The notes below the pieces were generated by a model. That model was given only the letters and a program-made list of their open reading frames with translations. It ran no database searches and was not told where the DNA came from. Below, piece after piece: positions 691 to 59,555 of a DNA stretch of 64,000 bases (within the stretch, counting starts at the first letter, position 1; each line of letters starts with the position of its first letter). A program made the translations under genes and the position numbers. The DNA comes from Minutocellus sp. GHC0000111 (taxonomy: Eukaryota), in NCBI GenBank assembly GCA_977018835.1, contig OZ361259.1, positions 4,340,001 to 4,404,000 on the forward strand. The letters are read 5' to 3'.

Positions 691-924
691 CGTTGTGGGT
701 ACCGCACGGTGGGGATGAGCTGGCGACGGTGGTTAGCAGCAGGCACTAAAACTGCATTCCTGTAGTGCCCAGTTTTTCTGCTGACCACCACCTTCGCCTC
801 CTCTCGTCTCAACTGACCAAGCCACAACCATCTGCGATTGCTGCCGTTGCAATTGCTAAGTCAGCTTACAGTACCGGCTCCCAGAGCCTGTCTCTCTCTC
901 TCTCTCAGCAGTTAGTTAGTTTTA
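691..924 (+). repeat. Direct repeat A1 (234 bp) of the YR retrotransposon
   Basis: Identical to 8871-9104 (offset 8180) except at 701/8881 (gggtAcc vs gggtGcc) and 909/9089 (cagCagt vs cagTagt). Confidence 0.97.
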
Positions 925-1102
925 GCACTAGGTTGGTGCTACTCTACGAGTTCGTAATTATTGGCCGACGACACACCACCACTGCTGCTGTTGTTAGTTA
1001 GTCCAGAGACCGCAGTCGACTCCGGAGTCAAACGGCCACGGCTCAGCTCCGTTGATAGTGCACGTAGATCCGATACCAGTCTCTACGACGGCAGAACAGT
1101 GC

Positions 1103-2540
1103 ATGGCCGAACCAGATCGACCGGAACTGGATCACGTGTTGTTCGGAGTGGCAAGAGACCTCATCGTCCGAGGAGACTCTCTCCTGACCTACCTTCCACG
1201 AGGCTGGGACGACAGACTCAGACGTCAGATTCGGCCCGGGCGCAGAAGTTTCTTCACAGCCAGGGCGTCGTCCGAGAGACTGACCACAGACGCACTGGAT
1301 TGGTGGAGAAGTTTTGCCGAGGGCCGAATCGACGTTACCGAGCACCTCACCGATCTCGTCGAGCGCGCCACAGGCTACCTCTCCCATCGAGAGCCACGGG
1401 GTACCAGCCATCCCCAGCAGCAGCCGTTTCACACCTTACTCCAGTAGCGCACGGTCTGGTCGCCGAGTACCTCGAGCAACAAGCCTTCTTGGTGTCACCG
1501 GACTGGCCCACGCACCTCGTCAACATCTGGCTGACAGCCACGCGCCTTACCGAGCCTGAGATCCGCCGGGCACACGAGACGGCAACTGAGTTGGACCTGA
1601 GCAGTGCACTGTACCGACTACCACGGGCAGACGGAGGCGTCGTGGTTCAACAGTATCGGGGGCGAAGGTTCCGGAGGCATCGGTAGCAGCAGCGCGGCAA
1701 CACCATTGCATCTGGCCCCAGCTCTGCCGGCTCTCGCAGTGCATCCTCCACTACCAGGCCGACCGAAAAGAAAGACGGCGCATCGCGGCCAGAGAGGGCA
1801 GACCTCTAGAGCCGACACCGCACGCTTGCATAGGTTCACGGGGGAGCGAGCTTCCACCAACGCTGCCGCTCACTTATTTCGAGTGGGAGGTAAGGCCACT
1901 CTTCTACCCACGTGACGCACACGACCGAACCGAGCGGGCTGGCGTCAGTGTGGCATTGGAGCGAGGAGATCTCATCGGCCCTTTCGCCCTGATCACCCAG
2001 TTCCCGCTGGATTCGCCGTGCCCGTTCCAGAGACGGCAGCACCTACGACCGGACCAACTCACTGAAGCTATTATCGACTGGGACAGTGGATTCGAGAGCC
2101 TCACCAGCGCTCGACTCCGACACACTCGGCCTGACAGCAATCCTCTTGGACACCGAGTGGAGGTCAACCCGCACGAATGCTGGGGAAGGCTGGCAGACCT
2201 AACGGCGTCCCCCTCACACCGCTGGGTAGGCACCTACCATCGAGTCTATCCGAGGTGGCTAGACGACACAGCCGATCCAAATCGCTGGGAGGGTGCCCAC
2301 TACCGCGTCTGGCCAAGAGCATCAATTCACCGGCGCCCCGACGATCTCGAGGCACCTGTCCGCCTGCGAGACATCACCGCCGATATTTTGGCATCATCAG
2401 AGCCACCGCGTCAGGCATTCAACATCCTTCTATCCGCCTTTGGAGAGCCCGACATCGCCGACCGCATCCTCACCCTCACGGCCGATCTGAACCACATCCA
2501 GCGCCGAGAGGACCGACGCCGAAGGCGACAGGCAAGGTGA
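1103..2540 (+). pseudogene. Extra ORF upstream of gag inside the YR retrotransposon, unknown function, frameshifted
   Basis: ATG at 1103 (MAEPDRPELDH...). Coding-like segments continue through ORFs 1052..1447, 961..1686 and 1950..2540 in shifting frames. It lies between A1 and gag. Confidence 0.5.
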
Positions 2541-2560
2541 TCGAGCATTGATTGATCACC

Positions 2561-4495
2561 ATGGCTTCATCTTTCAACACCTGGAAGTCAGTCCTACTGG
2601 CACAAGAGACACCGGCCGGGGCCGACGCCGCCGTAGCTCGAGATTTCCAGAGACGTCTGTGAAACCGACCCCACGGCCGCTGTGGTCCAGAGCCATGCCC
2701 GAGCGATCCAGCAGCAAATCCGCGACGCCGAGGGTTTGTCCATGCTGGCCCACCATCCAGAAGGGAAAGTCGTGGTGATTCACCACGCCGTGGCTCAGGG
2801 AGGCACCACCATGCAGCCCGACCTCAGGTTGGGTGGGCTCCTCGGGATCGACGATGTAGCCCCGGCAATGTCGTTGGCCCAACCTAGCCTCTTGCGGCAC
2901 AAGGAGGTCCTAGCCCCATCGGTGGAAGCCATGCTGGGGGCACCGTCAGAAGCCGCCCTAACCGGTCTCACCCAGGAAGGCTCCAACACCCGCCACCGGA
3001 GTGCCTCCACGAAGTTTAAGTCCCTTGTGCTACTGCCACCTTCGATTCTGCAGAATGTTCTGGAAGAGCACGAGGCATCGCCTTGGGCCATCCTGTCCGC
3101 CATCAAACGTCGGCTGGATGAGGACGCCGGCAGCGACGACGCATCAGACAGCGGTGACGACGAGGGTCATGGCGCAGCAGGTCTTCGCTCCAATGAGGCT
3201 ATTCAACACGTCGTCAAGTGGCTGTGGTTCGTCGCCACGTCCGAGCAAGGTGACATCCCGGCCGTCAGCTTGTGCCCAACGACGGACCCGGCTCTCAAGA
3301 CATGCGCCCGTGAGATGCACGCTCGGTGCATCACTGGCGCCAGTGGCGACGGACCACCAGCCGGTGGCGCCCCGACCGACTCTGCAGTCACTGCCGCGGC
3401 CAACGCCATGACTAGGGCCGCGTCCGAAGCATCCTCCCTCACCGGCGCAGTCATGGCCTACACTGACAAGGTCGACAAGAAGCACTCAATGAATGGCGCC
3501 ATCCTCAAGGCCTGTGCCGCTTTCTGCCGGGTCTCGACCGAGCATGACGATGATGTAGCAGCGATCGACTCGAATCTTCCCGAAGGATTGAAAGCACTGC
3601 TGGAAGAGTCAAACCTCACGCAAGCAGCCGTCGGCCTCGAGCTGCATGTAAAGGGCAAGACAGGAGTCAGGACATCTCTCCAGGGCCTCACCACTTACGT
3701 CCGCCTCTTTGGCTTCGGAAAGAGCGACAAGAAAATCTACGATGGCTTCTCTGTCTTCGCCTTTAGCCCGGCAAACTCCAGCAGCAGCAGCAATGCGCCC
3801 CTGCATCTCGCCGCCTCTCAAAAGAAAGGACACACCTCGACTCAGGTGAAGGCTCTTCTGAAGCAGAACTACTGGTCTTCAACCGAGTGCGACGGTGCCA
3901 AACGTCACATCTCGGCCTTCGGCGCTGGCACTTCCTTCCTTGCCGGAGAGGATTCCGAGCGCCCGCTCGCTACGTCGCCAGGGTCCTCAGTCACATGAAG
4001 ACACACGAGGACCAGTGCCGCGACATCGCCGAGAGCCATGGCGAGAAGTTCTGGCTGGCGATGTTCCACAATGTTGACGCCTCCATCCATGCATTCTGGA
4101 AAGCTTGTCTCCGTTCCCCCGACGACGCCGGCAACGACCTCTCTTGCTTCTCAATGGCCGACGAGTCCAAAAAGACAATGAAGACTCAGAATCCTTTCGT
4201 CTACCCCAGCCACATCAAGCCCGTCCAATCGGCCGACGCTCCCACCCCTTCCTCGGATTCCGACTCCGACAAATCAGAGCCAAGAACCAGTCCGAAAAAG
4301 AAGCAAAAGACGGGCGGCGCCAGCGGCAGAGCCCACCAGTGCGAACACTTCGTCACGTTCGACATCAACTCCGGCAACTTTGCAAAACGGCATGGCAAGA
4401 AATCCGAGCCCTATGAGGACAGACCTGAAATTAATGGCTGTAAATTCTGCCCTCCATTCATCCTGACAGGTGTCTGCGGCGCCGGATCCTCGTGA
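2561..4495 (+). pseudogene. Gag-like ORF1 of the YR retrotransposon (frameshifted)
   Basis: ATG at 2561, then ORFs 2682..3998 and 3887..4495. The C-terminal Cys cluster GCKFCPPFILTGVC resembles the CCCH-type finger of DIRS-order Gag. It sits upstream of RT. Confidence 0.7.
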
Positions 4496-5198
4496 GTCGC
4501 ACGTCAAGAGGCCTCTTAAGGCATCGGAGAGAGGACCCGTCGAGCAGTGCGTCGAGAAATGCGATCGGAAGCACGAGGAGGCGGAGGAATGACGGATCGG
4601 GTGGGCACGGAGGCGTGGCCCACCCTCGGAGGATGCTGGAGAAACATCTCGGCCAGCCGGCCGAGCTCGTCCCTCCAAGCGCCGTCGAGTGCAGCCAGAT
4701 GCGTCGGCGTCAATCCGCCCCGGTGGCTCCAGCCGCCCAAGGTCATCCGGCACCCCAAAATCCGGCGTGTGCGGTCGCAACGACATCAGCAACCAATCCA
4801 GGCTCTCCGGTGCCCCTAACACCGGAGCAGAAGGCCGAGGCGTTAGCAGTGACCTTTGGTCGGGTCCTGGCCCCCCCCTAACACCAGCGGTGATGCCTGC
4901 GCCGACAACAGCATCTCAGGCTCTGGCTCCAGCACCACTAACGCTGGCGGTGCGGAAGCCACCGACAACCTCTTCGACCGGCTAGGCCAGCGAGAGAAGG
5001 ATCTCCTAGGTAAGCAGCCCCAACCCGAAGCACAGTCTCCCCCTGGTTCCCCTGCGCACAGCAAGGAAGTAGAACCGATGCGCCAAAATGGTAAGTGAGA
5101 CCAACAGGTGAAGAAACACCCACAACAAACGGGGCAGCCCAGCGCCCACAATGGGCCCACCACGGTCGGACAGACCCGCATGCTCGTGAACGTGCAGC

Positions 5199-7913
5199 AT
5201 GTGCATGTCTCACCTTTTTCTCGCCTTGTGCAATTCCACGTGGGAACTAGAGCCCATCTTCGATGTTTCCACCTCGGTGCAGCACGTCCGACGAGCAGTC
5301 GAGTTCCCGTCGGCCACACCGAAGCCCACGGAGTTCAGATTTGAGCTCTTGACGGAGGCCGCCGCTCACAATTGGTCGGTCCTCAAGAAATACGATCGTT
5401 CTCTGAGCAGGGCACTCGAGGCGCAGGGCGGGTCGCCACTCCAACCGGGATCGGAGTTCAGAGACCTGAGTCTTCTGGAGCCGATTCTTGGCCGGCACCC
5501 GCTGTGGCCCCGCTTCCGCTCCATTCTCGACAGTGGATCCGACTGGGCCCTCGATCCGGTGAGCGACGAAAGCAGACTGGACAGCGTGATAAAGAACATC
5601 GGCCGAGGCAACCACAAATCTGCCAGGGATAGGCCGGAGGTGCTCAAGGACCAAGTTCTCGACGACGTGACCCGCGGTTTCGCCCTCCCTCTGCCAGCAA
5701 AGGTCGCGCCCCTCATTCCTGGAGCGGAGGTGGCTCCGATGGGTTTGGCAGCCCGGAGGCACTCAAGGACCAAGTTCTCGACGATGTGACCCGCGGTTTC
5801 GCCCTCCCTCTGCCAGCAAAGGTCGCGCCCCTCATTCCTGGAGCGGAGGTGGCTCCGATGGGTTTGGCAGCACAGAACACGATCAGCGAGGCTGGCGAGA
5901 TCATGCCCAAGGACCGCCTGACTCACGACCAATCCTTCGAGATCGGTGCCGCACGGTCCGTCAACAACAGAGTGCGCATGGAGGACCACCAGCCAGTGGT
6001 GTTCGGCCATGCCCTCCGGCGAGTGATCCACTGCATCGCAGACGCCCGTCACAAGCATCCCCGTGCTCCCATCCTCCTGCAGAAGGTCGATTTCAAGGCT
6101 GCGTGTCGCCGGGCCCACTTGGCTCCCAGCAAGGCCGTCAAAACGATCACCACCCTGGATGGCATTGCCCTCATGTCCCTCCGGCTGACTTTCGGCGGCC
6201 GCCCTTGCCCGAGCGAATGGTGCAACACATCCGAATCGGCGGCCGACCTGGCCAGGGCCCTCCTGCAATGCTCGGACTGGGACCCGTCAGAGCTCCATGG
6301 CCCCCAGCAGAAGCACTTGGGTCGCCCCAAGGTGGAGGGCGACGACGTGCCGTTCGCGCCGGCCCTGGACATGATCGCAACCCTTCCCGACAACAAGGAT
6401 GGCATCGTCGAGCCGCACATCGACGACCTCATCGCCGCAGCCCCTGACCTGGGCGACAACAAGGATCGGACATCCGCTGCCACCCTCCTCGCCATCCACG
6501 CGCTTGCTTGGCCGACCGGCATCCGATTGCGAGCCACTGCCCAGAGATGACCTTGCCTCCATCAAGAAGCTGCTCGCCGAGGGGACGCCTTCCGAAGCAC
6601 TGTGTCTCTTGGGGTGGGATGCTGACACCCGGCGGCTCCTACTGAGGCTCCCTTGGAGCAAGTGCCTGGCCTGGCGCGATGACATGCTTCGGCTCCTCAG
6701 AGCCCGCGGCGCCACCAGATCAGAGCTGGACACCTTGGTCGGAAGGCTAAACCACGTCGGACACATCATTCCAGCCGCACGACACTTCCTCAGCCGCCTT
6801 CGGGATCGGCTCTGGAAGGCCCGCCGCCACGGCCGCCAACGGTTCGACTCTGAGGATGCAGAAGACCTCAACCTGTGGCTCCGCTTCCTCCGAAGGGCCG
6901 CCGATGGCATGAGCATGAACCTCCTCACGCACCGTTGCCCCACCCACGAGCACATAAGTGACGCCTGCGAGCACGGCATCGGCGGATGGTCCTCATCCGG
7001 CAGAGCGTGGAGATTTGCCCTCCCCGAGGAGCCATGGGGCCGGTTCACCCTCAACTACCTGGAATTCCTCGCCGCCGTCATCGGCCCATGGATCGACCAC
7101 ATCGAGGGCAACCTACCAACCCTCTCCTGCGCACTGTCGGGGACCGACAGCACCACGGCCGAGGGATGGCTCAGGAAGTCGAACTTCGTGTCTCACGGCG
7201 AGAGGGATGCCGACGTAGCGGTCAAGCTGGCCACGGCGCGGAAACTAGCCGACATGCTCATCGAGACCAATGCCATGCTGTGCTCACAGTGGTTCCAGGG
7301 GAAGCGCAATCCGGAGGCCGACTCTCTTTCTCGTGATGCCGATCTCTCTGATGCTGACCTCACGAAATTGCTTCTATCATCTCCCGAATGTCAGCTTCCC
7401 TCAAATTTCAGGATTGCACCACCACCCAACGAGATTACTTCCTGGATTGTCTCGCAGGCGCGGACGCTGCCCGTCAGGAAGCAGTTGTTACAACGGCCAC
7501 TGCCGAGAAGCACGCTCTCGCGTGGAGCCGCTGGACTGAGTTCCTGCAGCTCATCGGGACCGGGGACGACGTCTTCCTCGACAAGGTGTCACCCCGAGAC
7601 CGAACAGTCATTCTCGGCGCCTTTGCCCACGCCGTCCGACAGGCCAGCTTTTCGGGGCCGAAGTTTTCGCGACTGGCTGCGTCGACAGTCCGAGACACCG
7701 TCTCACATGTGTGCTCGTCCTTCCGGCACAACCAGCGCAGGGACCCAGGGAAAGACGGCATCGGCCAGCCTTCATTCCTTCTACAGCGGCAGTTCCGAGG
7801 ACACAGCCAGTCCGACCCGGCCGAGCGGCCGGAGAAGGCGATCACCTGCCGGCTCCTCCGAGAGATCGCCTCCGTCAGGGAAACGGAAGAGGACCATGCA
7901 GTCGGGCAACTAG
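5199..7913 (+). pseudogene. Reverse transcriptase + RNase H (DIRS-type), frameshifted and point-mutated
   Basis: RT motifs RLTHDQS, KVDFKAA[C]RR, LRLTFGGRPCP, [H]IDD (6416-6427, expected YxDD) and LLGW. RNase H motifs SDACEHGIGG, NYLEFLAA, DSTTAEGW and N-x-ADSLSR. Split over ORFs 5199..5789, 5786..6550 and 6399..7913. Confidence 0.92.
5634..5871 (+). repeat. 119-bp tandem duplication inside the RT ORF (frameshifting)
   Basis: Copy 1 is 5634-5752 and copy 2 is 5753-5871. They differ at ggagg-TG-ctc vs ggagg-CA-ctc and at gaCgtg vs gaTgtg. Confidence 0.97.
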
Positions 7914-8676
7914 CCGTCGGCGCCTTCTTCTTCGCGATGAGGTCTCTTGCGAACACTCCAGAGTCAGCGGTGAGCGCAGGACCAAGCTGCTCCGCCTCCG
8001 CAACATCCAGTTCTACCGCGGCCGACGGCGCATGTGTCACAACGACCGGTCCCTCCTCTCAGCAGACTCTGTCTCCGTCACCTTTGAGTTCCAGAAGAAC
8101 GACGAGCGTGACGTCACGATTACGCAACACTGCACCCACGACGCCACCCTCTGCCCAGTTCGAGCTTGGGCTGCCCTTGTGAAACGAGTCCAAGGGCACC
8201 CTAGTACCAACAGCGATGCGCCGGTAAATGCCTTCGTGGTCAACGGCGTATTAAAATACATTCCTGCCACCCGAATAGTTGACAAGATCCGAGCGTCGGC
8301 CACAGTGATTGGAGAGGACGTCCTGGGCTGCCATCCCTCTGAATTCGGATCACACACTCCATTCGCAGCGGAGCAGCAATGATGGCAATGTATCTAAATG
8401 ATGTTCCCACGTACACAATCATGCTGGTAGGGCGGTGGTCCAGTGACGCCTTCCTCAAGTACATCCGTCGCCAGGTCCAAGAATTTACATCCGGAGTCTC
8501 TCCACACGCATGATCCAACGAGGTTCCTTTTCTTCAACGTGCCCCACGCACACTCGACGAGCCATCGCGAAGACCCAAGGACCCCAAATTGCCGCCAATC
8601 CTTCGCCGGCATCAACAGCATTGGCCGAAATGCCGGCTTCGGTACTCCAATGCCCCCCTTCGCCCTGTTCACCTAA
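7388..8676 (+). pseudogene. Tyrosine recombinase of the retrotransposon (frameshifted)
   Basis: Motifs AFFFAMRS-CE[H]S, FEFQKND, LCPVRAW, HSIRSGAA (8355-), GRWSSDAFLKYIR with the catalytic Tyr at 8460-8462. It overlaps the RNase H ORF, as is usual in DIRS-order elements. Confidence 0.92.
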
Positions 8677-8761
8677 GCACGACACACATCATTGGCCGAT
8701 CTGTGCTGCGCACGGAAAGGAGGAGGGGGAGAGGGACCTCACCCTCTAAGAAGTTTCATTT

Positions 8762-8779
8762 ACCGCCAATGCCAGCTCC
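8762..8779 (+). repeat. Repeat B1 core (18 bp), matching B2 remnant at 9116-9133
   Basis: accgccaatgccagctcc occurs at 8762 and at 9116, on either side of A2, giving the B1-A2-B2 arrangement. B2 appears truncated. Confidence 0.75.
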
Positions 8780-8870
8780 AGTTCACGTAGTTAAACTGCA
8801 TTTCATGTTCTACTAAGTTGCATAGAGTTGGGAGAATCAGCGGAGGGAGGCACTGTGTTCGATGCATCAT

Positions 8871-9104
8871 CGTTGTGGGTGCCGCACGGTGGGGATGAGC
8901 TGGCGACGGTGGTTAGCAGCAGGCACTAAAACTGCATTCCTGTAGTGCCCAGTTTTTCTGCTGACCACCACCTTCGCCTCCTCTCGTCTCAACTGACCAA
9001 GCCACAACCATCTGCGATTGCTGCCGTTGCAATTGCTAAGTCAGCTTACAGTACCGGCTCCCAGAGCCTGTCTCTCTCTCTCTCTCAGTAGTTAGTTAGT
9101 TTTA
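8871..9104 (+). repeat. Direct repeat A2 (234 bp)
   Basis: Copy of 691-924 with two mismatches. Confidence 0.97.
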
Positions 9105-9223
9105 AATTCCCTCAAACCGCCAATGCCAGCTCCTCGGCTGGGGTGCTGGGCTTTGCACTTGGGTGCGGTCGAGTGAGTCGAGGAGTCGAGTCGAGTGAAG
9201 TCCCAACGTCCCAACCGCGCCTG

Positions 9224-9428
9224 TAGCCATGTGTAAGTTGTGGGTCAAAACCCGAAAAATTGTGGGTCAAAACCCACCGGTATTTTGTGGGTTAGTGGGC
9301 TACTAGTACATGGTTTGGACCAACCGACGGCTCCACTGACGCATGCATGAGCCAGCGGGCCAAAAATTTGTGGGGAGTTGTGGGTTTTTAGTCGAATGAG
9401 TCAAAAACCCACAACTTACACATGGCTA
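9224..9428. mobile_element. hAT-type MITE (205 bp)
   Basis: Perfect 22-bp TIRs: tagccatgtgtaagttgtgggt (9224-9245) and acccacaacttacacatggcta (9407-9428). 8-bp TSD cgcgcctg at 9216-9223 and 9429-9436. Several internal ttgtggg subterminal repeats. Confidence 0.93.
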
Positions 9429-9618
9429 CGCGCCTGCCGAAAAGCAACGACAAAAAGTCCATGAGTTCTCGATGCAGTTCGGCGCACTTGGCGTGCTACG
9501 CATTGCGATGTATAAAACGATGGAACATTGCCGTCTACGAAGGAAACGGCCCCGGTAAAGGCCTGGTCGGAAACTGCTGCTGCTGACCTCACTTCTTGTC
9601 GGAGATGCGACTGCCTTC

Positions 9619-15476: not shown

Positions 15477-16535
15477 CTAGAAGTCCAGGTCGAAGACCTC
15501 ATCGGAACGGCAGTCCTCCTCGTCGTTGTCGACGAGGGCTGGGCCAGGGCCGAAGAGGGGCTGGGCGTTGTCCTTGGCGGCGGCGACGAGGTCGGGGAAG
15601 AGGGGAGGCGGAGCGCTCGAGGGACGGTCGGGCTCGCCGGTGAGGAACTCTCCGTAGGCCTCGGAGTGGGTGACGATCCTCCCGTTGGAGATGCGGCGGT
15701 TGCTGCGGCGGATGCTGGACGAGATGGCCGCCGTCGTGGTCATCATCCGGCTTGGCCGCTGCTGCTGATCTTGGAAATTGACGGCCCAGCCATCGTCGTC
15801 GTCGTCCTCGAGGCTGAGAGAGCTACCGGCCGACACCTCAATGTGCGACCGACGCGTCTGGATGATGTTCTCGACGCACCGGTCCGTCTGGAGGAGGTAG
15901 GCGCGGTGGTGGTTGGAGTCGTCGAGCGGGTCGGAAGACCTTGAGCTTGTGCTGGCTTCGGGACGACCCGCATGATCTGGTGACTCGTGCTTGTAATAGT
16001 CATCGTCGTCGTCTTCGTCGTCTTCGGAGAACAGGGACTCGAGGAGGCCGGGGTTCATATTACCCTCGGAGCTGCTCATGCGCTGCTGCATTTGGACGAG
16101 CTGGCGCTCCTGCAGCTGGGCACGCTGGCGATTTCGCATACCCTGGACGAGGCGGTGAAACATGGCCAGATCGCGCCATTCCGCCGCGACGGTGTCCTCC
16201 TGCAACTGGAGCTCGGATGCGGTCCGGGGAAGACGATTCTTGATGGGGATGGTCTTCTTGGGCGGATTGATCGGAGATCGGAGAGGACCGGCGGTGGTGG
16301 TGGGTTGCCTCGCGCCCTTTTCATTGGTCACCTCTGACATGCCTCTCCTGACATCTTGGAGGTTGAGGAGTGGAAAGTCTTTCTCGACCTTGGAAGTCCG
16401 TGGAAGCTGAAGAGGCGATCCCCGACGGCGCTTGGGAGAGGCAGACAAGGAGGACTTGTTCATGCTTGTTGACATGAGTGGTGTTGTGGTTGGATCAGAG
16501 TGCTCGCGGTGGGGGTAATAGTACGCATGCGCCAT
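15477..16535 (-). CDS. Hypothetical low-complexity protein of a diatom-type family
   Basis: 352-aa ORF with GC3-rich codons. Conserved-looking core RTASELQLQEDTVAAEWRDLAMFHRLVQGM and C-terminal EVFDLDF. Confidence 0.7.
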   Translation of the reverse strand: MAHAYYYPHREHSDPTTTPLMSTSMNKSSLSASPKRRRGSPLQLPRTSKVEKDFPLLNLQDVRRGMSEVTNEKGARQPTTTAGPLRSPINPPKKTIPIKNRLPRTASELQLQEDTVAAEWRDLAMFHRLVQGMRNRQRAQLQERQLVQMQQRMSSSEGNMNPGLLESLFSEDDEDDDDDYYKHESPDHAGRPEASTSSRSSDPLDDSNHHRAYLLQTDRCVENIIQTRRSHIEVSAGSSLSLEDDDDDGWAVNFQDQQQRPSRMMTTTAAISSSIRRSNRRISNGRIVTHSEAYGEFLTGEPDRPSSAPPPLFPDLVAAAKDNAQPLFGPGPALVDNDEEDCRSDEVFDLDF

Positions 16536-17015
16536 TTGGGGAATGGACGGAGAAAATGGGTGATGCCGGAAGATTCACCGGCTCCTTGCTTTGAATCACA
16601 AAATCAACGTGAACCACGAGATTTTGGCGCGATGCCTGCGCGATGCCGAAGAACAAGCAGCTGCTTCCTCAGATGCCGTCTCACCGGGTGTCACCTCTGA
16701 CATCGGCGACTCTTTTAGATACACAAAATCGAAAGAAGACCCGAACCAGCAGAACGAGCGCCGAACGAGCGCCGAACGAGCGTTTTGAGTCAGAAAGAAA
16801 TGCAAGAAATCCCTGAAAGACGCCGTCCGATTTTGTGAGGCCTGAACCGGACGACGGAAATGACGACACTCATGATTGAGCGAATGCATGCGCATAGGCT
16901 AGCGCATGCACGGTGATGTGATGCAAGCGGCCGATTCATTGACTCATACTGGCTTCGCTCTTGATACTTTTCGAGTTGTAAATTTAGAGATAGCACTCTG
17001 ACCCCTTCTTTCACC

Positions 17016-50911: not shown

Positions 50912-53299
50912 CTACATGTGTTGGTAATGAATGATTACTAATTTACGAAACATCCCCAAAAGACCCCCATTGGACCTCGGCCATGCATTGTCTGGTAATT
51001 TCTGGGCATTCGCTCCCACTCCTAGCACCTGCGCTGTCAACCTGCTTTTGGTGAGATTCTTATTCATCTTGCTTGCCAACCACCGACGGACTTCAAGATC
51101 TAAAGCCTTTCCTTTTGCCACTAGTTCGGCCTCATCGATCTCGGCTGCTCTAAACACATCATCCTGATCTTTTGTGACAGCTGCATCAACCACACGCATT
51201 GCCAACTTATATTTTGTCTTTTCATTGCGATCAAAAGCCCTGGGAAGTATTGCCAGCGGCGGAGGCATGGATTCATGCGACGACCCTGACTTCAGCTTTC
51301 CAGATCGAGCCAATTCTATTACTATTTCGCTCATGAGCGGCCACTTATTCTTCTTTTTGCCCCCAGCGCTGCTGACAGTTGACAACTGCTCCGTCGTTGG
51401 TAGCGGTGGAGGCCGAAGAGCCGTCGGTAGCGGTGGCGCTCCTCCAACCATTCTCCTTGCTATGGCAACCGGCGATACTGCAATGGCAGATATTGCGGTG
51501 CCGATAATGCCAGAACCTCCAGCGGTGCGCTGCCGCACGTTTCGGCCAGGGGATCGCGGTGGGGATGGCTCTCTTCGTCGGATGGTGCCACCGGCAGGTC
51601 TACTGGTACCAGCAACCGCCGAATCAACACCACCAGAAGCAATCAATGGCACCGATGTTCCATTTAGCGCCCTTGCATCCGATTTTTGTAGCTGAGTCTC
51701 AAGGTGACATATTGTTCTTGCGTTGGTTGCTGCCAAAGCCTTCAAATCGGCAATCTCCTTCCGCAAATCTGATACTAAACGATTGTTTTCAGCTACCACA
51801 GTAGCAAGCTCCTCCTCAGCGGATGAATACGGTGCATTGATGGCCTTGAAATCATCTGCCACCTTCCTTGACCACCCCTTCAATTGAGACAGATCAATAC
51901 CGAGCTCGTCCCCCACATTCATCATCCGACGAACGGCAGGGCCTGCAACTCCAAGAAAAGACAGCTTCGTCGAAAAATTCATAATGTTGGTGGCCAGCAC
52001 CTCCCGTACCAGCTGCCGTAGCCTCCCTCCAGCCTTGAAATCAGGCATTGTCATTGGATATAATTTGTCTGCAAACCGATCCAAAAGAGCCATGTCGTCA
52101 GGCAAAGTGCTGATGGCAATGAGCCGAGGAGGACGGTGGGACTTCCGAGGAGAGGGATGGCCAGCAAGAGACCTCATTGGCACATGTTGCATCGCCCGCC
52201 GAGATAGCACGTAGTGCCTGGTGTTATCAGCAGGAGCGTGGCCTGATCGTGCCGTGAGCTCTGGATGATTCACCGACGGATCTTCGTGAAGGTGGGTAGT
52301 GCCGCCGTATCGCATGCTTCGACCAGATATGCTGTCCCGTATTGAATCCGGCAGATCATCTCGCAAGGTTTCGGTGAGGGTCTTGGAAGTCCAGGAATCG
52401 CTTCGAGCCTGGCACATCGGTACAACAAAGGCCTGGAGAAAACCTATGTTGCCAGAGGAGTTGCAGGTACGAGAGAGGCCACCATCGACGCTCCAGTGGT
52501 CACCAAGGGCATCAAATACACAAGTCTCCCACCGGTCATAATCTGTACAGAAGGTAGTCGGCCTGGTCGTGCCATTCTTCAAGTCCTTCCAGTCAGCAGC
52601 AGCACAATTACCGACGGGATCATATGTCATGCCCTGGTAGTTGAGATATTTCACCTCCCCGGACCGGCCATCGGCGGCATATGTCAAGTTGAGAGCAAGG
52701 CGTCGCTGGTGCTTGTCGCCGAGCTTGCTGGTTTTCAGTAGCTTGCGATTGATGGTGACCATGTCGGGAACATCGTCGGCAAATGGACTGGTGCTGACAC
52801 CGTCGTGTCCTTCAATAACACCAGCATCGGGGTTGAGGCGAACGATGCCGATCTTGCCGGGTACTTCGTCGACACCAGATGTGCCACGGACGCTGTCTCT
52901 CTCCAGCTTCTTGACGAGCGCGCCCTTGGAGAGGGTGAACCAGGTCTCGTCGGTCCAGTCGACGTGGCGGCCGAACCGGTCCTTCAGGTACTCCTTGATG
53001 AGGCCGAAGCCGTTGCCGACGCCGTCAGCCTTGAGGAGCTTGTCCCGGTTGTTCATGTACCTCGGAGGGTTCGTCGACATGTACTCGGCCCAAGAGCACA
53101 TAATTGATTCGATGTCGCCGGGCGATGCGACGTCTTCGGGCGTCAAGTCGTCGACAAAGGGAAGACCGATATGCTGAAGATATGCATTGAATCGGGTATT
53201 GTACGATGATAACTCGGGTGGTGCCCTTGGGACTGCCGTGCGGCGAAGGCCGGCGGTGGCGTTCGTGGCGGCGGTAGCAGCAGTAGTAGCGGCGGCCAT
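50912..53299 (-). CDS. Tyrosine recombinase, Crypton-like (DNA transposon type), apparently intact
   Basis: Catalytic order R (DGRSGEVK), K (WKDLKNG), xxxR (GRSMRYG), H (ARSGH), Y (NTRHY). Long C-terminal extension with a coiled coil. No RT nearby. Confidence 0.8.
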   Translation of the reverse strand: MAAATTAATAATNATAGLRRTAVPRAPPELSSYNTRFNAYLQHIGLPFVDDLTPEDVASPGDIESIMCSWAEYMSTNPPRYMNNRDKLLKADGVGNGFGLIKEYLKDRFGRHVDWTDETWFTLSKGALVKKLERDSVRGTSGVDEVPGKIGIVRLNPDAGVIEGHDGVSTSPFADDVPDMVTINRKLLKTSKLGDKHQRRLALNLTYAADGRSGEVKYLNYQGMTYDPVGNCAAADWKDLKNGTTRPTTFCTDYDRWETCVFDALGDHWSVDGGLSRTCNSSGNIGFLQAFVVPMCQARSDSWTSKTLTETLRDDLPDSIRDSISGRSMRYGGTTHLHEDPSVNHPELTARSGHAPADNTRHYVLSRRAMQHVPMRSLAGHPSPRKSHRPPRLIAISTLPDDMALLDRFADKLYPMTMPDFKAGGRLRQLVREVLATNIMNFSTKLSFLGVAGPAVRRMMNVGDELGIDLSQLKGWSRKVADDFKAINAPYSSAEEELATVVAENNRLVSDLRKEIADLKALAATNARTICHLETQLQKSDARALNGTSVPLIASGGVDSAVAGTSRPAGGTIRRREPSPPRSPGRNVRQRTAGGSGIIGTAISAIAVSPVAIARRMVGGAPPLPTALRPPPLPTTEQLSTVSSAGGKKKNKWPLMSEIVIELARSGKLKSGSSHESMPPPLAILPRAFDRNEKTKYKLAMRVVDAAVTKDQDDVFRAAEIDEAELVAKGKALDLEVRRWLASKMNKNLTKSRLTAQVLGVGANAQKLPDNAWPRSNGGLLGMFRKLVIIHYQHM

Positions 53300-53422
53300 G
53301 GTGTCAAAAGACTGCGAGCCAAACTTTACCCAGGAATCCCCCCGAAACACCCGGGTAAAGTTCGGAAGCAAGGCGCAAAAAGATCCTCCAAGCAGACAAC
53401 GAGCGAACATTACAATTATTTT

Positions 53423-53495
53423 TGTGGAATATTCAACAGAAGTAAATGCACGAAAAAGAGAATGGATGTCATTTATCAATGTTGAATATTCAACA
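53423..53495. promoter_or_regulatory. Two copies of palindrome TGTTGAATATTCAACA in the divergent YR/cargo spacer
   Basis: 53423-53438 (TGTGGAATATTCAACA) and 53480-53495 (perfect). Further copies at 56356-56371 and 58074-58089. The function is inferred. Confidence 0.6.
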
Positions 53496-53586
53496 AAAAT
53501 ATATATATCCAAAGACTCGTGGTTTCCTACCGTCTAAACTCACTAACACTTTTCCGTGCTTTTGAACTTAATACAAAACACACAGA

Positions 53587-56500
53587 GGCTCGTACGAAAT
53601 CGTCAAAGCCACGGAAGGTAGCCCTGAGTCGCGTACCAAATGAAATAAAAATATGCTTGCAAGTTATCTATGAAGCATGTGGCTTCACGAAGGAAGAAGC
53701 GCAGAATCAATGTATTACAGCGAAGCAAGGGACACCAGAAACACATGCGTGGAAAGAGGCCTTGCCTTGCTTTTAATTTATTCCCAAGCAAAAAGATTAA
53801 AACGAAGGTCAAAGAAGGAGGTAAATTGTACGTCAGGGACACCCCTGGCGATGTTGTAGGGCCGCACATGGCATATGAGGCAATATTGGAGGAAACAAGT
53901 AAGAAGAAGAGCGATAATGAGTTGCCTATGTTGCTGAAATACATTATCCATGAAGTTGGATCGAGGCTAGCGAAATTTGAAGATGATGATTATTTCCCTA
54001 AGGAGGGATTTATGAAGGCAATGAAAAATGTGGTCGCGGTGCAAATGAGTAATAAGGACTACTCGGACGTTAGATGCAAGGTGGTGACGACAAATGAGTA
54101 TAGTGGTGATGAATTAGTCTCGTGGCTACGCCGAGTCTATGAGCTAGACGAAGAGTATGACTTGTCCGACGAAGGATTCGAGAGGACGATTAAAACAGTC
54201 AGAGGTTATCGTAAAGGGATGGCTCGAGGTGGAATGGCATGTCCCAAAGAGTGGGCAGAGAGGGTGGTTTCAATTAATATTGCAAAAAAGGACCCGAATA
54301 TAACTCCGAACGAAGTGGATAAAGCACTGCAGAAGATTGCTGAAAAGAAGAAGAAAGATATGACGGTGACCGACGATGAGGACAAAGGAGATGCCGAGGA
54401 CGACCAGAGCGACAGAGTAGAGAGATCCGCGGAAGAAGAGGAAATCTGGAACTAGATGAAGACGAGGAAACAAACAATGAGGAAGAAGGAGGAAATAATG
54501 GATCAGTAGAGGATGGATCAGACGAGGACGGAAAAGAAGAGGCAGAAGATACATTGGAAGGGAAAAAACAGGTATGTATGTATGTATGAAAAGATGATTG
54601 TTAATTAGCATTTGAAGGGTTCTAAAGATGAACCGAGCTACCAGCACTAATGATTTGTGTACTTTATTTCCGTAAGCAGGCTGGATCAGAAAAGGACAAG
54701 GGATCGAAGAAAAAGGGCAAGGAAGCCGAGGATGATGCAGATGAATACAACAGGCAAGCACCTTAAATAGCTCCGAGGGGTATAAAGATGGGATCGATAG
54801 CCGCGGTCTCCTTCTTCCGGTATGGTTTTCAGGACCAAGAATCGGTAATTGGAATAGTCGAAGGAAGTAATCCAAGAACACACCCAACAATTGAAGATAG
54901 AATCCCGATACAAAATGGTTTGGTTATTCCGGGAGGTGATGTTCAGAATGACGTACGAAAGGAAACCATTGACACAGTGTACATGTGGTCGGTGAAGAAA
55001 GGTTCGAAGCTGAATCAGATGATAGAGGATGGACAAATATACGAAAAGATCTTTGAAGGCGTCTACATTTCTATAGACAGGAGAAAGTCTGGAGATGTAG
55101 AGAATAAATATCTGGAAGAGCACCGAGTGTACTATGATGTCCCGAACATTGCGATGGTAATGGATGCTAGAGACTATGCAGGAGGAGAAGCATCCTTTCA
55201 GAATAACGATGAAGCGTTCAAAAGAACCAAGGAAAGGAAAATGAAAGAAAGACTTACGCTGGAAGGGTTCGATGGATTTATGGAAAATATGACCAAGGTA
55301 CAGTTCCACGAACTAGCATCGATAAGTAGAGCCCATGAAACATCGAAGGGTGTCTTACTCACAGAGGACGAAGAGAGTGGAATCCTAGAAAACTATGAAA
55401 AGGACGACGATGAGGAGGAGGAGGCGATACTCAGGATTGCAACCCTTAGGAAACTTGAAAGGGTTGTTCGAGAAAGGTCTAGTAGGAGACTTGCAAAGAT
55501 CGCTGGTTATGCAGAGGCATTCTCCGTTTCGTCACTGGGAGAAGAATGGAGTTCAAGAATTGAGGTAAGTAATGAGAAAAAGATGAGATGTAGAAAAATG
55601 AAATGTACAATGCCCCTCGAGAGCTGAATCTTAATCATTGCCACTTTTCTCTTATTTTGCAGTCTGTCCAAATTAATGGTGCAAAACGAACAGTAGAGGC
55701 GAGAAAATTGATACTAGGTTACCCAACAGACCCCAAGAGTCAATTATTAATGAGCAACGAAGAAATGGACAAGATTAATCCGACACGAATCACAGCAACG
55801 ATGCCTATCGCAACAAATGAGTGGAATGTTGCGTGGTACCCTTCCATGACCCCGGAACAAATGTGCGCAATAGGAACCGCTGCGACGAATGCCCAAGCGA
55901 CGGAAGCAGGGTTGTCAGTTATGACATTAATCGTGACTCTCCTTGAGCGAGCGAGGGGTGTAGCGGCAAACATCGGAGGAATAGGAAGAGAAGAATTCTG
56001 GAATGGAGATGACAAGGCGCTGAAGAAGTATGAAAAAGTCCTCCAAGCAGCTGTCAAGATAGTTATGAAAGCCGCAGAAGGAGTAGAGAAGAGCGAATGT
56101 CACCCCTTGAGATCGATGGTTGATGACCACGCGAAAGCTAGCGGGATGAATACAAGAGTGAAGACTTTAGGGTGCACAGCCCAGAGATTTGAGACGCTAG
56201 CAAAGTTGGAGTCAATACCGTACTGGGAAAAGTACACGAAAGAAGATCCACTAGGACAATACTTCGAGAAGAAGGTGAATATGAAAGGGAAGAAATTCGT
56301 GATGATTGGTGAGTACTGGAAACTAGAAAAATGCAAGAATTGTGATATTTACTTTTGTTGAATATACAACAAAGATATATGAGCAAAATTTGAATATGGA
56401 ACTGTACTAACAATCCCGTCGAATTGAATGACATCACATGACCAACCATTCACCGCCTAAAGGGAATTATGACTCCAATTATGGAAAGCATTGGGTCGCG

Positions 56501-58025
56501 AAGGGTCTACCGACACAGAGAAAGCCATATGCTTATCAGATAACAGGATTCAGCATTGTAGCGGATGTATTAACAGCGGCTATGCTAGTAGATGGAGGGA
56601 TCAATGCGACGATGGCCGCAGCTCAGATTAGAAATGTAGATTTGAGGACTTTGTATCAGATGTTTGTTCATGCTAATAATCTCTGTTCTATCCCAGCGGA
56701 CTTAATGGCGAAAGACATGTATGAGATAATGGACACGCCATTACAAAGAGATGGAAGAGCGAAGACCTTCAGATATTGCTCCGGGAAATACCAAGCAACA
56801 GCAAGATCATTAATATTCAAAGAGACCTGCAAAATGATAGCAGACCATGGAAACGACAACTCGATGCGGCCAACAAGAGAAGCATTGGCTAGTTCTGCGC
56901 CTAATAGCACCAGGAGGAATACTGGATAGTGGAAATGAACTGGATCTCGGAGGACTAGAGAAGAGTGATGAGGAAACAGAACAGGTAATATGCCAAGGAC
57001 ATCCGTTAGATGACTTGACGTTTGAAGCCATCAGTCCTCTGAAAAACATGAATACCTTGATCGAACGAGTACTATTCTTTCATTATTCCTTTGTGGCGAA
57101 TGAATACACGGTGAGACCAGAAAGATTCAATTTAGATAGAGTCCTACTGTACGACAGAGAAGAAGAAGGATCGCCAGTGCCGCAAGAGGAGAAAACTAGA
57201 AACCATACGGTAACGAGAGGAGGTAAGGAATTTGAAATATTATTCAACTCAACAGGAGCAATTAAGGTGAGCGAGCACGTAAATGAGGATTCACAAAGAG
57301 TGATGAGCTTAGTACCAAAAGAAATAATGCTCCGATGCGTCATGAACAATATGGTAATGGGAAAACCAAAAGAAGGAGAGGCGTTCGTAGCACAAACGGA
57401 CTTCATCCAGAGATATGTGAAAGTAAAAACGAAGGAAGGAGGCATAGAACTTAAGTCAGCGACGCCACAGAAGAGGATGACAGCAGCGCAACGCAAGGAT
57501 TCATGCATTGGAAATATGACGAGCGACTTTGAAAAGATAACAGACCTACTCGAAGAAGCAATGGATCAGGATGGGAGCACTAAAACAAAAACACTTGAAA
57601 GAGTCGCAGCTATAGCCGAAGCAGGAAAGAAGAGGGGACAAGACGAGATAAGCCAAGCAACGCCACAAGGAAAGACTCGAAATAAAAGCAACACGCCAGA
57701 GTCAACGAATGACGACGGAGATACTCAAAAAAGAAAAGCCACAGGAGATGACGAGGAAGAACAAAAGAGAGGTCAAGATGAGAATAACCATGATACGCCG
57801 CAGAAAAAGATGAATGAGAAAAGCAACGAGAAGGAGCCAGAGACTCCCGAAAGAGATACTGGAAATGAAGGAGAGGACAGAGTATCGGTACGAGGACCTG
57901 AGACAAGACGAAGCATGAGATCGAGAAAAGGGCATGATGAAGACACGGGGGAAGAGAAAAGTAAAAAATCAGAAGGCAGCGGAAGGAGGGCAAAGAAAGC
58001 AAGAAAAAAAGATAAGAATAATTAA
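53587..58025 (+). pseudogene. Large multi-exon orphan gene (or genes), Lys/Glu-rich, with frameshifts and a stop
   Basis: Chained ORFs 53670..54455, 54788..55627, 55603..56361, 56438..56929 and 56847..58025. Intron-like segments start GTATGT (~54572), GTAAGT (~55565) and GTGAGT (~56309). No recognisable domain. Confidence 0.55.
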
Positions 58026-58119
58026 TATATATGTATATTATACTAGCAAAATTAAAGAAGAGATATCTACAAATGTTGAATATTCCACAAAGATAAATTG
58101 AGCGAGGTACATGAAATCT

Positions 58120-59555
58120 TCAGAGCTGACCGTAATCATCAGGACCAGAAGGATCGAAATGAGGACCAGATCGAAAGCATGATCTGAGGTAACGAAAGAC
58201 GGGAGACGAGGAGGCAAAAACATCGCTAGGGAGATGGGGGTTGGAGTCAAAATTAGATCTGAAAACGTAAGCAGCGGATCCAACGTTGGCATCACGTACA
58301 TAGAGCATGGGGATTTCATCGGAACAGATTGACTCTCTGTCAGCTGCATGGATAACACGTAAGACGTCGACTTGCTCAAGCTGGTTCACAGCAAGAAAAG
58401 ATGCTATGAAATGGCAAAAAGAAGCATGAATAGGACCTGCAGATGCCACGCCGGGGCCGTGAGGTTCGGAAGCTAATGATTGGACAAAACGTGCAAATTC
58501 AGGATGCCGAAAGACCGTGCGAAACGTCGGGACACATGACATTACAAAAGGTAAAACAGAACCACTCCAATCAATGTCCGACCCAGAACGACGAAGACGA
58601 AAAGAGCTATGAGGTCGACGGAAGAAAAATATCCCGTCAATGCGATAAACAGTACGACGGAAGATATCAATAATAAGACTCCGATCGACGAGGCTCGACG
58701 AAGAAGAGAGACAACCAAAAGACCGAGGAGATTCGAGAGACCGAGATACAGGATCGACGACAGCGGAAGATACAAATATAGAACGAGACAGACAAAGATC
58801 GACGATGAAGGAGTGAAATTCATTCGAGAGAACGATATCAACGAATGACGGGGACGAGAGATGGGTAGAGGCGCATTGGCGACAGTGAGAGGACAACCAC
58901 AAACGACGAAAGAATTCCTTGCCGAGGGGAGAAGCCGCAAACGAATCCATGGTAGGGAAACAGAAGAGACAAGAAACACCACGACGACACCGCCACGAGC
59001 GCAACGAAGACGACGATGTACAATTACAATGGAGCTCACACGGCGCACCGATGCAGGATACGATCGACGGCCAAGATTTGAACGCGCACCTGTGAGCAGA
59101 AAGTCTCACTACTTTCCATATGACGTCATTATATGTCTCGGCCACATAGGATTGTTGAGCATTCAACATTAGTAAATAATGCAGGAAGAGGCATCGACTA
59201 TAAACAAGGAACGTATAAAAAGTAAAGAGAGTTATGCTTAAGCAGTAAGAAAAGAATTGTAGCACGAAGTGCCAATTTATAATAATAAAAAAAAAGAAGA
59301 GGAATAGCTAGCAGCTCATCACGGACACACGGCAACAGGAAGGAGCTGGTCCTTTTTTGGTAGAGCCGCTCGACCCAAAAACTGGACATTCGTCTTTCCG
59401 TCGTCCGTGTTTCCAACGCGGCGAAGTACGGGAAAAGTCGCAATTTCCTGCCGGACCAACTTTTCCCCCTGAAACATGGCAAAAAGACTTGATCGAGCCG
59501 GCCTGCCTCGCTTACGTCCCCACTCTAGTTCACATTCATTCAAGGTTGGGGACAT
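58120..59555 (-). CDS. Possible orphan gene (ORF 58120..59265 plus possible first exon from ATG 59555)
   Basis: 381-aa ORF with a Cys cluster. The strong strand skew lowers stop-codon frequency, so it may be spurious. Confidence 0.35.

Follow-up and report, generated by a model that had tools for sequence, protein, structure and literature searches.

Loss of TA dinucleotides to TG or CA in a family of Ngaro-type retrotransposons of the diatom Minutocellus, probably after integration

A transposable element at positions 691 to 9133 of the window (the whole stretch of DNA analyzed: 64,000 nucleotides of Minutocellus sp. GHC0000111, contig OZ361259.1, positions 4,340,001 to 4,404,000 of the forward strand) belongs to a multicopy family in which ancestral TA dinucleotides have given way to TG and CA in nearly equal numbers. 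We regard it as highly probable that TA was lost under a rule of flanking bases, independently in each copy, and through many rounds of damage to chromosomal DNA. As a complete explanation, we lean slightly toward a host process that acts on integrated copies over many divisions and changes TA to TG or CA equally and independently, most likely through an adenine deaminase with a preference for TAY.

RESULTS

Loss of TA in the family

Former-TA sites were read in 40 sibling RT/RNase H proteins plus the window copy. The 19 fully readable sites, picked because they were variable or still TA in the window, gave 177 readings of TG, 164 of CA, and 59 of TA. Rows P0124 (identical to the window) and P0145 (the same as P0032) were excluded, as were the compound overlapping sites 6226, 6228, 6683, 6685, and 7706 and columns adjacent to gaps or lying in poorly aligned stretches. 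The sibling data are at the protein level, so silent changes are invisible in them. The 62 former-TA columns, out of 837, hold 301 of the 399 differences from the family majority; outside TA, the per-site frequency of A>G changes following A or G was 0.2 to 0.6%. The family provided at least 34 copies that overlap.

The outgroups carry Tyr, Ile, or Val at most of the former-TA columns. At four Tyr columns conserved in the outgroups, the siblings showed Cys in 39, His in 31, and Tyr in 12 of 82 readings. At 14 former-Tyr sites, none of the 278 readings was Arg, and CpG-containing (CGN) Arg codons were retained in 963 of 970 readings. Thus, the ancestral dinucleotide was TA and not CG, since Tyr gave rise to Cys and His but never to Arg, and the CpG Arg codons survived. 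Loss of TA was not detected in distant relatives, either at six Tyr columns of distant homologues (Tyr 355, His 8, Cys 6) or in 34 JGI loci, where short-read consensus contigs could mask it.

Family contigs from the Illumina libraries X7 and X11, which come from two studies, also read TG or CA, and not TA, at the same sites. Four runs, including two Illumina libraries, yielded contigs in which the DNA differences listed (40 of 70) included 8 TG/CA swaps, 11 single TA-type changes, and 13 changes of non-TA type. The private alleles of the window copy and its duplication were not confirmed in the family contigs, which drop rare alleles.

Effect of the flanking bases and of position

The extent of the loss varied with the flanking bases. 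In the RT region, RTAY sites read TA 6, TG 150, and CA 146 times, YTAY sites 38, 21, and 5 times, and RTAR sites 15, 6, and 13 times, respectively. The 5' ORF showed the same mirror pattern (122, 45, and 4 for YTAY; 18, 3, and 10 for RTAR). Loss was fastest at RTAY and slower at YTAY and RTAR, and YTAR was nearly untouched where readable. The RTAY classes were defined after inspection of the data, and 4-mer counts provided a check separate from them. A single RTAY was present in the near-saturated zone (2501..8000), versus 49 expected, and 610 were present at positions 9200 to 64000, versus 791 expected, all within one window. The observed/expected ratio of RTAY was 0.05 in the RT region, 0.20 to 1.31 in 34 related JGI metagenome loci, none of which was as poor in RTAY as the window element, and 0.31 to 1.16 in 16 host ORFs. 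In this window the TA change is confined to the selfish element, and the host genes are spared.

The loss also formed a gradient along the element: 98% of RTAY sites were mutated in the core versus 70% in the 5' ORF, where TA was retained in 44 of 146. The A repeats, which have the highest depth within the multicopy family, were largely spared of TA changes and carried the fewest changes. By a hand estimate, the excess in mutation rate is about 300- to 1,300-fold.

Independence of the copies

The spread of pairwise similarity in the core was 0.131, compared with 0.130 in 500 shuffles. The share of changes in the same direction along copies was 0.47 to 0.52, compared with 0.48 to 0.51 in shuffles, lying slightly below the shuffles in the 400- to 1,000-bp distance bin (3 of 500). 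The TA load varied among copies, with a standard deviation of 0.215 versus 0.127, reached in 0 of 1,000 shuffles; at the extremes, one copy retains 12 of 12 TA and another 1 of 11. Pairwise similarity in the 5' ORF was more widely spread than in shuffles (0 of 1,000), which we put down to the differences in load, shared ancestry not being separated out there. The core changes show neither shared ancestry nor strand coordination. Because they are independent and uncoordinated in direction, we infer many rounds of mutation, with new changes arising on chromosomal DNA.

Structure of the window copy

The element appears to be a broken Ngaro-type tyrosine-recombinase retrotransposon. The RT catalytic motif, named YxDD, reads HIDD in the window copy (6416..6427, plus strand, as are the repeats and reading frames that follow); its first residue is His in 15, Cys in 4, and Tyr in 1 of the siblings, and in the outgroups it is Tyr in 65 of 80. 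The Ngaro assignment was made by layout and domains, and PAT and VIPER elements likewise have split repeats (PMC9210276). As in Ngaro, the split direct repeats are arranged A1-ORFs-B1-A2-B2 around RT/RNase H and a tyrosine recombinase, and the A repeat measures 234 bp, against 236 bp in Xenopus DIRS-53 (PMC8547959, PMC9210276). Unlike described Ngaro elements, the window copy has short B repeats with cores of merely 18 bp and a reduced B2, and all of its reading frames are broken. A1 (691..924) forms the left end, the flanks before 691 differing in other family copies as judged from loose contig ends. The B1 core (8762..8779), identical to that of B2, precedes A2 (8871..9104), and the B2 core (9116..9133) forms the right end; contig joints suggest a longer B2 in other family copies.

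Between the repeats lie the frameshifted 5' ORF region (958..2540), a partly mutated zone without a protein family match, and a second ORF region in two frames (2637..4495), which occupies the gag position and had no match in Pfam or PHROG. They are followed by the RT/RNase H frame (5205..7910), disrupted by a 119-bp tandem duplication (5634..5871) and a 4-bp insertion, and by the frameshifted tyrosine recombinase (7388..8588). The RT identity comes from a fold search of a 64% identical relative, P0006, whose model (mean pLDDT, 85.9) resembles the RTs of retroviruses, caulimoviruses, and Ty3 in fold, with foamy virus, CaMV, and Ty3 enzymes as matches (best E value, 1.7e-9). RNase H was assigned from motifs read by eye. 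The recombinase was identified through relatives: it is 40 to 56% identical to the ORF of locus L001, which matches PF00589 at 28.7 bits (cutoff, 27.1), and the PF00589 score of relative L005 fell under the cutoff. Searches of the window frames and of P0006-type relatives against Pfam gave no hit to an RT, RNase H, or recombinase, and PDB sequence searches gave no match.

Repeat pairs inside the window copy

The original prediction held that the repeats of the element differ almost only at TpA sites, in both strand directions. As it claimed, the 234-bp repeats A1 and A2 have exactly two mismatches. The first (701/8881) sets TA, within GTAC, at 700..701 in A1 against TG at 8880-8881 in A2, and the second (909/9089) sets CA at 909..910 against TA at 9089-9090. 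A further family copy, at the end of an X7 contig, reads CA at 700-701 (the family contigs begin at 702), and the base at 909 would be T in the family contigs covering 874-924, which have one other letter each. The A repeat contains 11 TA and 10 CG in its 234 bp; both mismatches falling on a TA base has a P value of about 0.009, suggestive but by itself not decisive. Identity of A1 and A2 at insertion is general in Ngaro elements (PMC9210276) and may hold for the window copy.

The 119-bp duplication, whose true unit is 5634-5752/5753-5871, reads TG at 5641-5642 and CA at 5760-5761 as described, but a third mismatch, C5666 versus T5785, had been left out. It sets CG against TG (5666-7/5785-6), a CpG-type transition. 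Three of the four variable repeat sites are TA-type and one is CpG-type, which tempers the "almost only." The duplication is missing from the X5 family contig, which skips 119, and from the sibling proteins, and it could have arisen by recombination between two already mutated copies. A consensus reading of TA at 5641-5642, proposed as a check, was not borne out literally and proved an unsuitable test: no TA was seen there in any DNA examined, and the X5 contig probably reads TG, its 7 other letters over 5123-5666 all being explained elsewhere. The corresponding residue is Val in 9 and Ala in 2 sibling proteins and V, V, I, and T in the four nearest outgroups, consistent with a Val codon that contained TA in the ancestor and has since mutated in nearly all copies.

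Until outgroups polarize it, TG versus CA is also the classic pattern of CpG decay. The internal-control argument therefore pointed in the right direction with less force than claimed, having three sites and omitting the CpG transition; three TA-type sites alone are weak evidence, and it is the family data that decide. These data support its broader claim of ancestral TA changed in both strand directions, after insertion and at the DNA level. The rejection of RNA editing and RT error stands because TG and CA are balanced (177:164), the flanks are mirror symmetric, the copies are independent, and direction is uncoordinated.

DISCUSSION

In the favored process, ancestral TA changed to TG or CA, quickest at RTAY, with unbiased strands, uncoordinated direction, unequal copy loads, and a core-to-end gradient. 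Mixed directions within a copy would imply many rounds on the chromosome separated by replication, because one round of duplex damage gives each daughter a single direction. The saturated middle, the spared ends, and the untouched host genes suggest targeting by an RNA guide or by a domain of silenced chromatin. As candidate chemistry, deamination would turn adenine into hypoxanthine, which is read as G; the initial change would destroy the TA palindrome, so that every site would be altered once. Loss of the conserved tyrosines would inactivate the whole family. Given these chromosomal events, adenine deamination is the rather more probable chemistry, and a DNA adenine deaminase is our best guess for the enzyme, although the mutated pair alone fits a lesion of A or of T alike.

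The most serious alternative, possible but clearly less probable, retains the same chromosomal process after insertion with another chemistry: a modified T in 5'-RTA that pairs with G, or adenine that is methylated and then deaminated. Oxidized thymine, e.g., 5-formyluracil, is such a G-pairing base. Since 5'-TAY is 5'-RTA on the opposite strand, all counts fit equally, and a mark-then-decay route would resemble CpG decay in being slow and strand independent. However, there is no direct sign of such a mark here, and we know of no T-side mutator of comparable strength. The known DNA-editing ADAT2 favors GAA and not TA (PMC10354150), a point for a modified base, whereas the authors of the work on Bigelowiella natans favor deamination of A, as yet unproven (bioRxiv 10.64898/2026.01.13.699255).

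It is improbable that a polymerase of low fidelity, polymerase eta for instance, made the A-to-G changes at WA motifs during repair of methylated repeats. Polymerase eta works on chromosomal DNA and on both strands, A>G changes were slightly more frequent after A (13 of 2,147) than after G (15 of 6,127), and the abundance of small tandem duplications points to extensive repair. Its TA:AA ratio is just a few-fold, however, whereas about 98% of core RTAY sites are mutated against 0.6% for AA, and the small duplications do not lie near former-TA sites. A role for the duplications as scars of repaired TA lesions was rejected, the 21 events being no nearer to former-TA sites than random.

Equally improbable is editing before integration, in which RNA editing would give TG and editing of single-stranded cDNA would give CA. 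DIRS-1 has a linear single-stranded cDNA (PMC7192593), and copy-by-copy editing would likewise yield a star-like family. Nevertheless, two separate steps would have to produce 150:146 at saturated sites together with mirror-image flanks, no copy contains single-direction runs, the halves of the duplication differ, and in B. natans the same change occurs on chromosomes (bioRxiv 10.64898/2026.01.13.699255).

CpG methylation decay, with TG and CA both derived from CG, would explain the textbook TG-versus-CA pattern, the CG/TG repeat site (one of four), and the roughly 3-fold excess of CpG transitions over other C>T changes in the family (hand tally), and transposable elements of diatoms are described as methylated via DNMT5, but it is refuted for the bulk of sites by Tyr, Ile, or Val in the outgroups at most affected columns, the lack of Arg at Cys/His sites, the retained CGN Arg codons, and a CG observed/expected ratio of 0.92 in the RT region, and stands just for single sites such as 5666/5785. 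Just as hard to credit is a long-read base-calling or assembly artifact at modified bases: the sibling proteins, of which P0124 matches the window at 100% identity, probably share its assembly, and the private alleles of the window copy lack contig confirmation, but the Illumina contigs of two studies agree on TG or CA.

Other systems resemble the TA loss in part. RIP of ascomycete fungi likewise produces dinucleotide-specific transitions on both strands that ruin repeats after insertion. APOBEC/ADAR hypermutation, which acts on cDNA or RNA and leaves a single direction on the sense strand, is similar in marking selfish elements with a signature of the host deaminase type that depends on neighboring bases, whereas the copies studied here mix the two directions in equal proportion. 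In RIP, C-to-T transitions generate TA, whereas TA was removed here, as outgroup Tyr, Ile, and Val show. RIP has been linked to RID/DNMT4 (PMC9998398). It is also homology dependent, unlike the change of a single-copy target in B. natans, and in the present family the most repeated part, the A repeats, has the fewest mutations.

The nearest known parallel is in B. natans, where integrated viral DNA undergoes TpA hypermutation (Mettrop et al., bioRxiv 10.64898/2026.01.13.699255). There, mutation accumulation lines show de novo TpA-to-TpG/CpA changes on chromosomal DNA about 1,000-fold above background, reverse transcriptase and DDE domains are enriched in TpA-poor genes, and ADAT2 is proposed. 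Both cases involve TpA changing to TpG or CpA, on both strands, in selfish or foreign DNA, and here too the A:T-to-G:C changes were restricted to TpA with both outcomes. B. natans is, however, a rhizarian and not a diatom, and its targets, a virophage region and an inserted giant-virus sequence present in single copy, contrast with a multicopy retrotransposon. They are far from saturation (TpA ratio of 0.45, against 98% mutated at core RTAY), and the main text describes no flank rule, whereas the window family has one, together with a core-to-end gradient and a per-copy load. The terms "diatom" and "stramenopile" are absent from that paper by term search, and no report of TA-erasing mutation in diatoms was found in the open-access PMC and bioRxiv literature. 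Amphioxus ADAT2/3 is a natural enzyme that converts A to I in DNA; its preferred contexts are GAA for A and TCG for C, and the consulted text of PMC10354150 gives no TA rule or repeat targeting. It is the one natural ADAT2 shown to deaminate adenine in DNA, and its preference for GAA counts against the favored deaminase.

On balance, there may be an even chance that diatoms possess a reversed form of RIP, in which a 5'-TAY DNA adenine editor, shared with or parallel to that of Rhizaria, is guided to silenced transposon bodies and drives families extinct strand by strand, the same chromatin perhaps showing frequent 2- to 4-bp tandem duplications. Few natural instances of A-to-G editing in chromosomal DNA are known so far, and the one other organism for which a published TA-erasing process was found is an unrelated alga, B. 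natans. The family offers a ready test set, with its overlapping copies, flank rule, core-to-end gradient, and range of loads. It also carries a warning: in genomes of this kind, neither LTR dating nor a majority consensus can be trusted, the latter reading TG or CA and not the ancestral TA. If the favored reading is true, nature would have produced, in the enzyme responsible, an adenine base editor that recognizes a defined motif, and a major algal group would have a RIP-like defense of opposite chemistry.

Results

The element runs A1, ORFs, B1, A2, B2, the layout given for Ngaro retrotransposons in sections of PMC8547959 and PMC9210276; the cores of its B repeats, at 8762-8779 (B1) and 9116-9133 (B2), are 18 bp each. 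A relative of the 5205-7910 frame (64% identical) has a predicted fold like those of retroviral and Ty3 reverse transcriptases, and 7388-8588 shows 40-56% identity to an ORF matching the phage integrase family. The genes adjoining the element have long uninterrupted reading frames that encode eukaryotic domains, and two of them have their best Atlas cluster in Bacillariophyta, making a diatom the probable host. Several of the runs containing the DNA are sponge or marine libraries.

Since a TG/CA pair alone could also derive from CG, evidence from outside the element's own repeats was required. Forty usable RT/RNase H proteins of further family copies (siblings) on long ENA contigs, with a maximal overlap of 34-35 at one column, were compared with ∼100 distant relatives. 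Tyr content was 0-0.7% in the siblings versus 0.5-3.1% in the relatives, in a subset of proteins from one search. At four columns where Tyr is conserved in the relatives, the siblings carried Cys (39), His (31), or Tyr (12); one of these columns is the RT catalytic motif, where the window copy has His. Ile columns changed to Met or Thr among the siblings, and Val columns read Val or Ala. All of these splits are explained by TA changing to TG or CA. A CG ancestor was ruled out: none of the 278 readings at 14 former-Tyr sites gave Arg, and CGN Arg codons were intact in 963 of 970 readings.

At 19 fully readable sites in 41 sequences, TG was found 177 times, CA 164 times, and TA 59 times. RTAY (TA plus flanks) retained TA in only 6 of 302 of these readings, while YTAY favoured TG over CA (21 versus 5) and RTAR favoured CA over TG (13 versus 6), a mirror image expected of a single activity preferring TAY on either strand. 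These classes were chosen after data inspection, and the 4-mer count in the window serves as a separate check: RTAY occurred once in the core (2501-8000) versus 49 expected, compared with 610 versus 791 elsewhere in the window. In 34 related loci, observed/expected values ranged from 0.20 to 1.31. Given that A>G following A or G amounted to only 0.2-0.6% per site, the core rate is, by hand estimate, ∼300-1300 times the background. At eight positions outside TA (928, 5275, 6346, 6424, 7204, 7322, 7660, and 7758), the window copy departs from the family majority by A>G or T>C; such changes outnumber those of the C>T type and may stem from weak off-target action of the same mutator.

Core copies were no more alike than shuffled data (spread of pairwise similarity 0.131 versus 0.130), so the changes did not come down from already mutated parent copies. 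The choice between TG and CA showed no coordination at any distance along a copy, one bin being slightly below shuffles. In the 5' ORF (36 proteins plus the window copy, 12 sites), the mirror flank rule was seen again, with RTAY still TA in 44 of 146 readings, and the mutated share varied between copies far beyond shuffles (0/1000). One sibling (P0180), a young or protected copy, had TA at all 12 readable sites. In family contigs, the A repeat retained most of its TA sites; the contig ends, as read, break at both its GTAC sites. The partly mutated 5' ORF and the mostly intact A repeats thus describe a gradient from the core to the ends.

The case for TA mutation is weakest at the three sites in the internal repeats. 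As originally predicted, the 234-bp A repeats (691-924 and 8871-9104) mismatch at two bases, TA/TG and CA/TA (p ∼0.009 for both lying on TA bases, with 11 TA per repeat); at 700-701 another family copy carries a third state, CA. The tandem duplication (5634-5752 and 5753-5871) does read TG at 5641-5642 and CA at 5760-5761, but the prediction overlooked C5666 versus T5785, a CpG-type change when the halves are compared. Siblings carry Val (9) or Ala (2) at 5641-5642. Together with V, V, I, and T in the near relatives, these residues fit an ancestral Val codon containing TA; no TA state was found there among the DNA compared. The repeats are consistent with repeated mutation of chromosomal DNA without proving it, as recombination between two mutated copies may have produced the duplication.

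Artefact was rejected as the source of the TG/CA pattern, since TA-type differences appear in contigs of the family from four runs, including two Illumina libraries that come from separate studies. Against the window, these contigs showed 8 TG/CA swaps, 11 single TA-type changes, and 13 other changes among the 40 of 70 differences listed, a comparison that covers family alleles and not those private to the window copy, as contigs lose rare variants. The RNA libraries X7 and X11 fully covered the examined 5100-9188, which may reflect transcription or DNA carry-over; contigs cannot separate the two.

Compared with family contigs, the window copy has nine insertions (966, 6502, 7484, 7943, 8351, 8379, 8497, 8528, and 8708), eight of them perfect 2-4-bp tandem duplications; another, at 2394, was detected from proteins. 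In the siblings, 26 in-frame insertions are private, 21 of them doubled residues, versus ∼5 private deletions. The insertions were not close to former-TA sites and may be assembly errors.

Directly before the element lies a perfect 44-bp palindrome (636-679), probably itself repeated in view of its raised read depth and length variants, and directly after it a MITE-like element (9223-9429) with perfect 23-nt terminal inverted repeats and no RTAY depletion. A GC-rich ORF (15477-16574) without a match in Pfam or PHROG is low in TA (0.30) and RTAY (3 versus 9.8 expected). An 832-aa ORF (50912-53410, minus strand) has Atlas neighbours with NDC10_II and GCR1_C domains, which we take to denote Crypton-type tyrosine recombinases; with 35 RTAY versus 36 expected, it is likely a transposon-derived gene that escaped the mutator. 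The adjoining block of orphan ORFs (53414-59177) is richer in AT and strongly skewed, contains a 34-nt palindromic motif in five copies, shows no TA depletion, and is possibly foreign or mobile cargo.

Discussion

The TA mutation at the element is real. After a single round of damage to a duplex, each daughter would carry one direction, and the even mix within each copy points to many rounds on replicating chromosomal DNA. Mutation of chromosomal DNA after insertion, as originally predicted, is thus upheld by family-level independence and mixed direction.

In our preferred reading, the host would deaminate adenine within 5'-TAY of silenced transposon DNA, a predicted chemistry. The lesion could instead lie on the T side of the same base pair. 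As for ADAT2 as the deaminase, the sole ADAT2 shown to edit DNA adenine, as described in part of PMC10354150, prefers GAA. Polymerase eta, whose error motif is WA, fits poorly because AA is almost unmutated. RNA editing predicts exclusively TG, and editing of first-strand cDNA exclusively CA, yet copies carry both.

No report of TA hypermutation in diatoms was found in open-access PMC and bioRxiv. In the main text of a preprint by Mettrop et al. (bioRxiv 10.64898/2026.01.13.699255), new TpA to TpG/CpA mutations are described in Bigelowiella at ∼1000-fold over background, and that portion mentions neither a diatom nor a flank rule. The change is the same in both systems, the target there being integrated viral DNA and here a retrotransposon family. 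The mutation studied here is a variant of that process, described once, in a preprint. This locus adds a tyrosine-recombinase retrotransposon for which family-level evidence shows mutation that is independent, strand-symmetric, and progressive and that follows a positional gradient.
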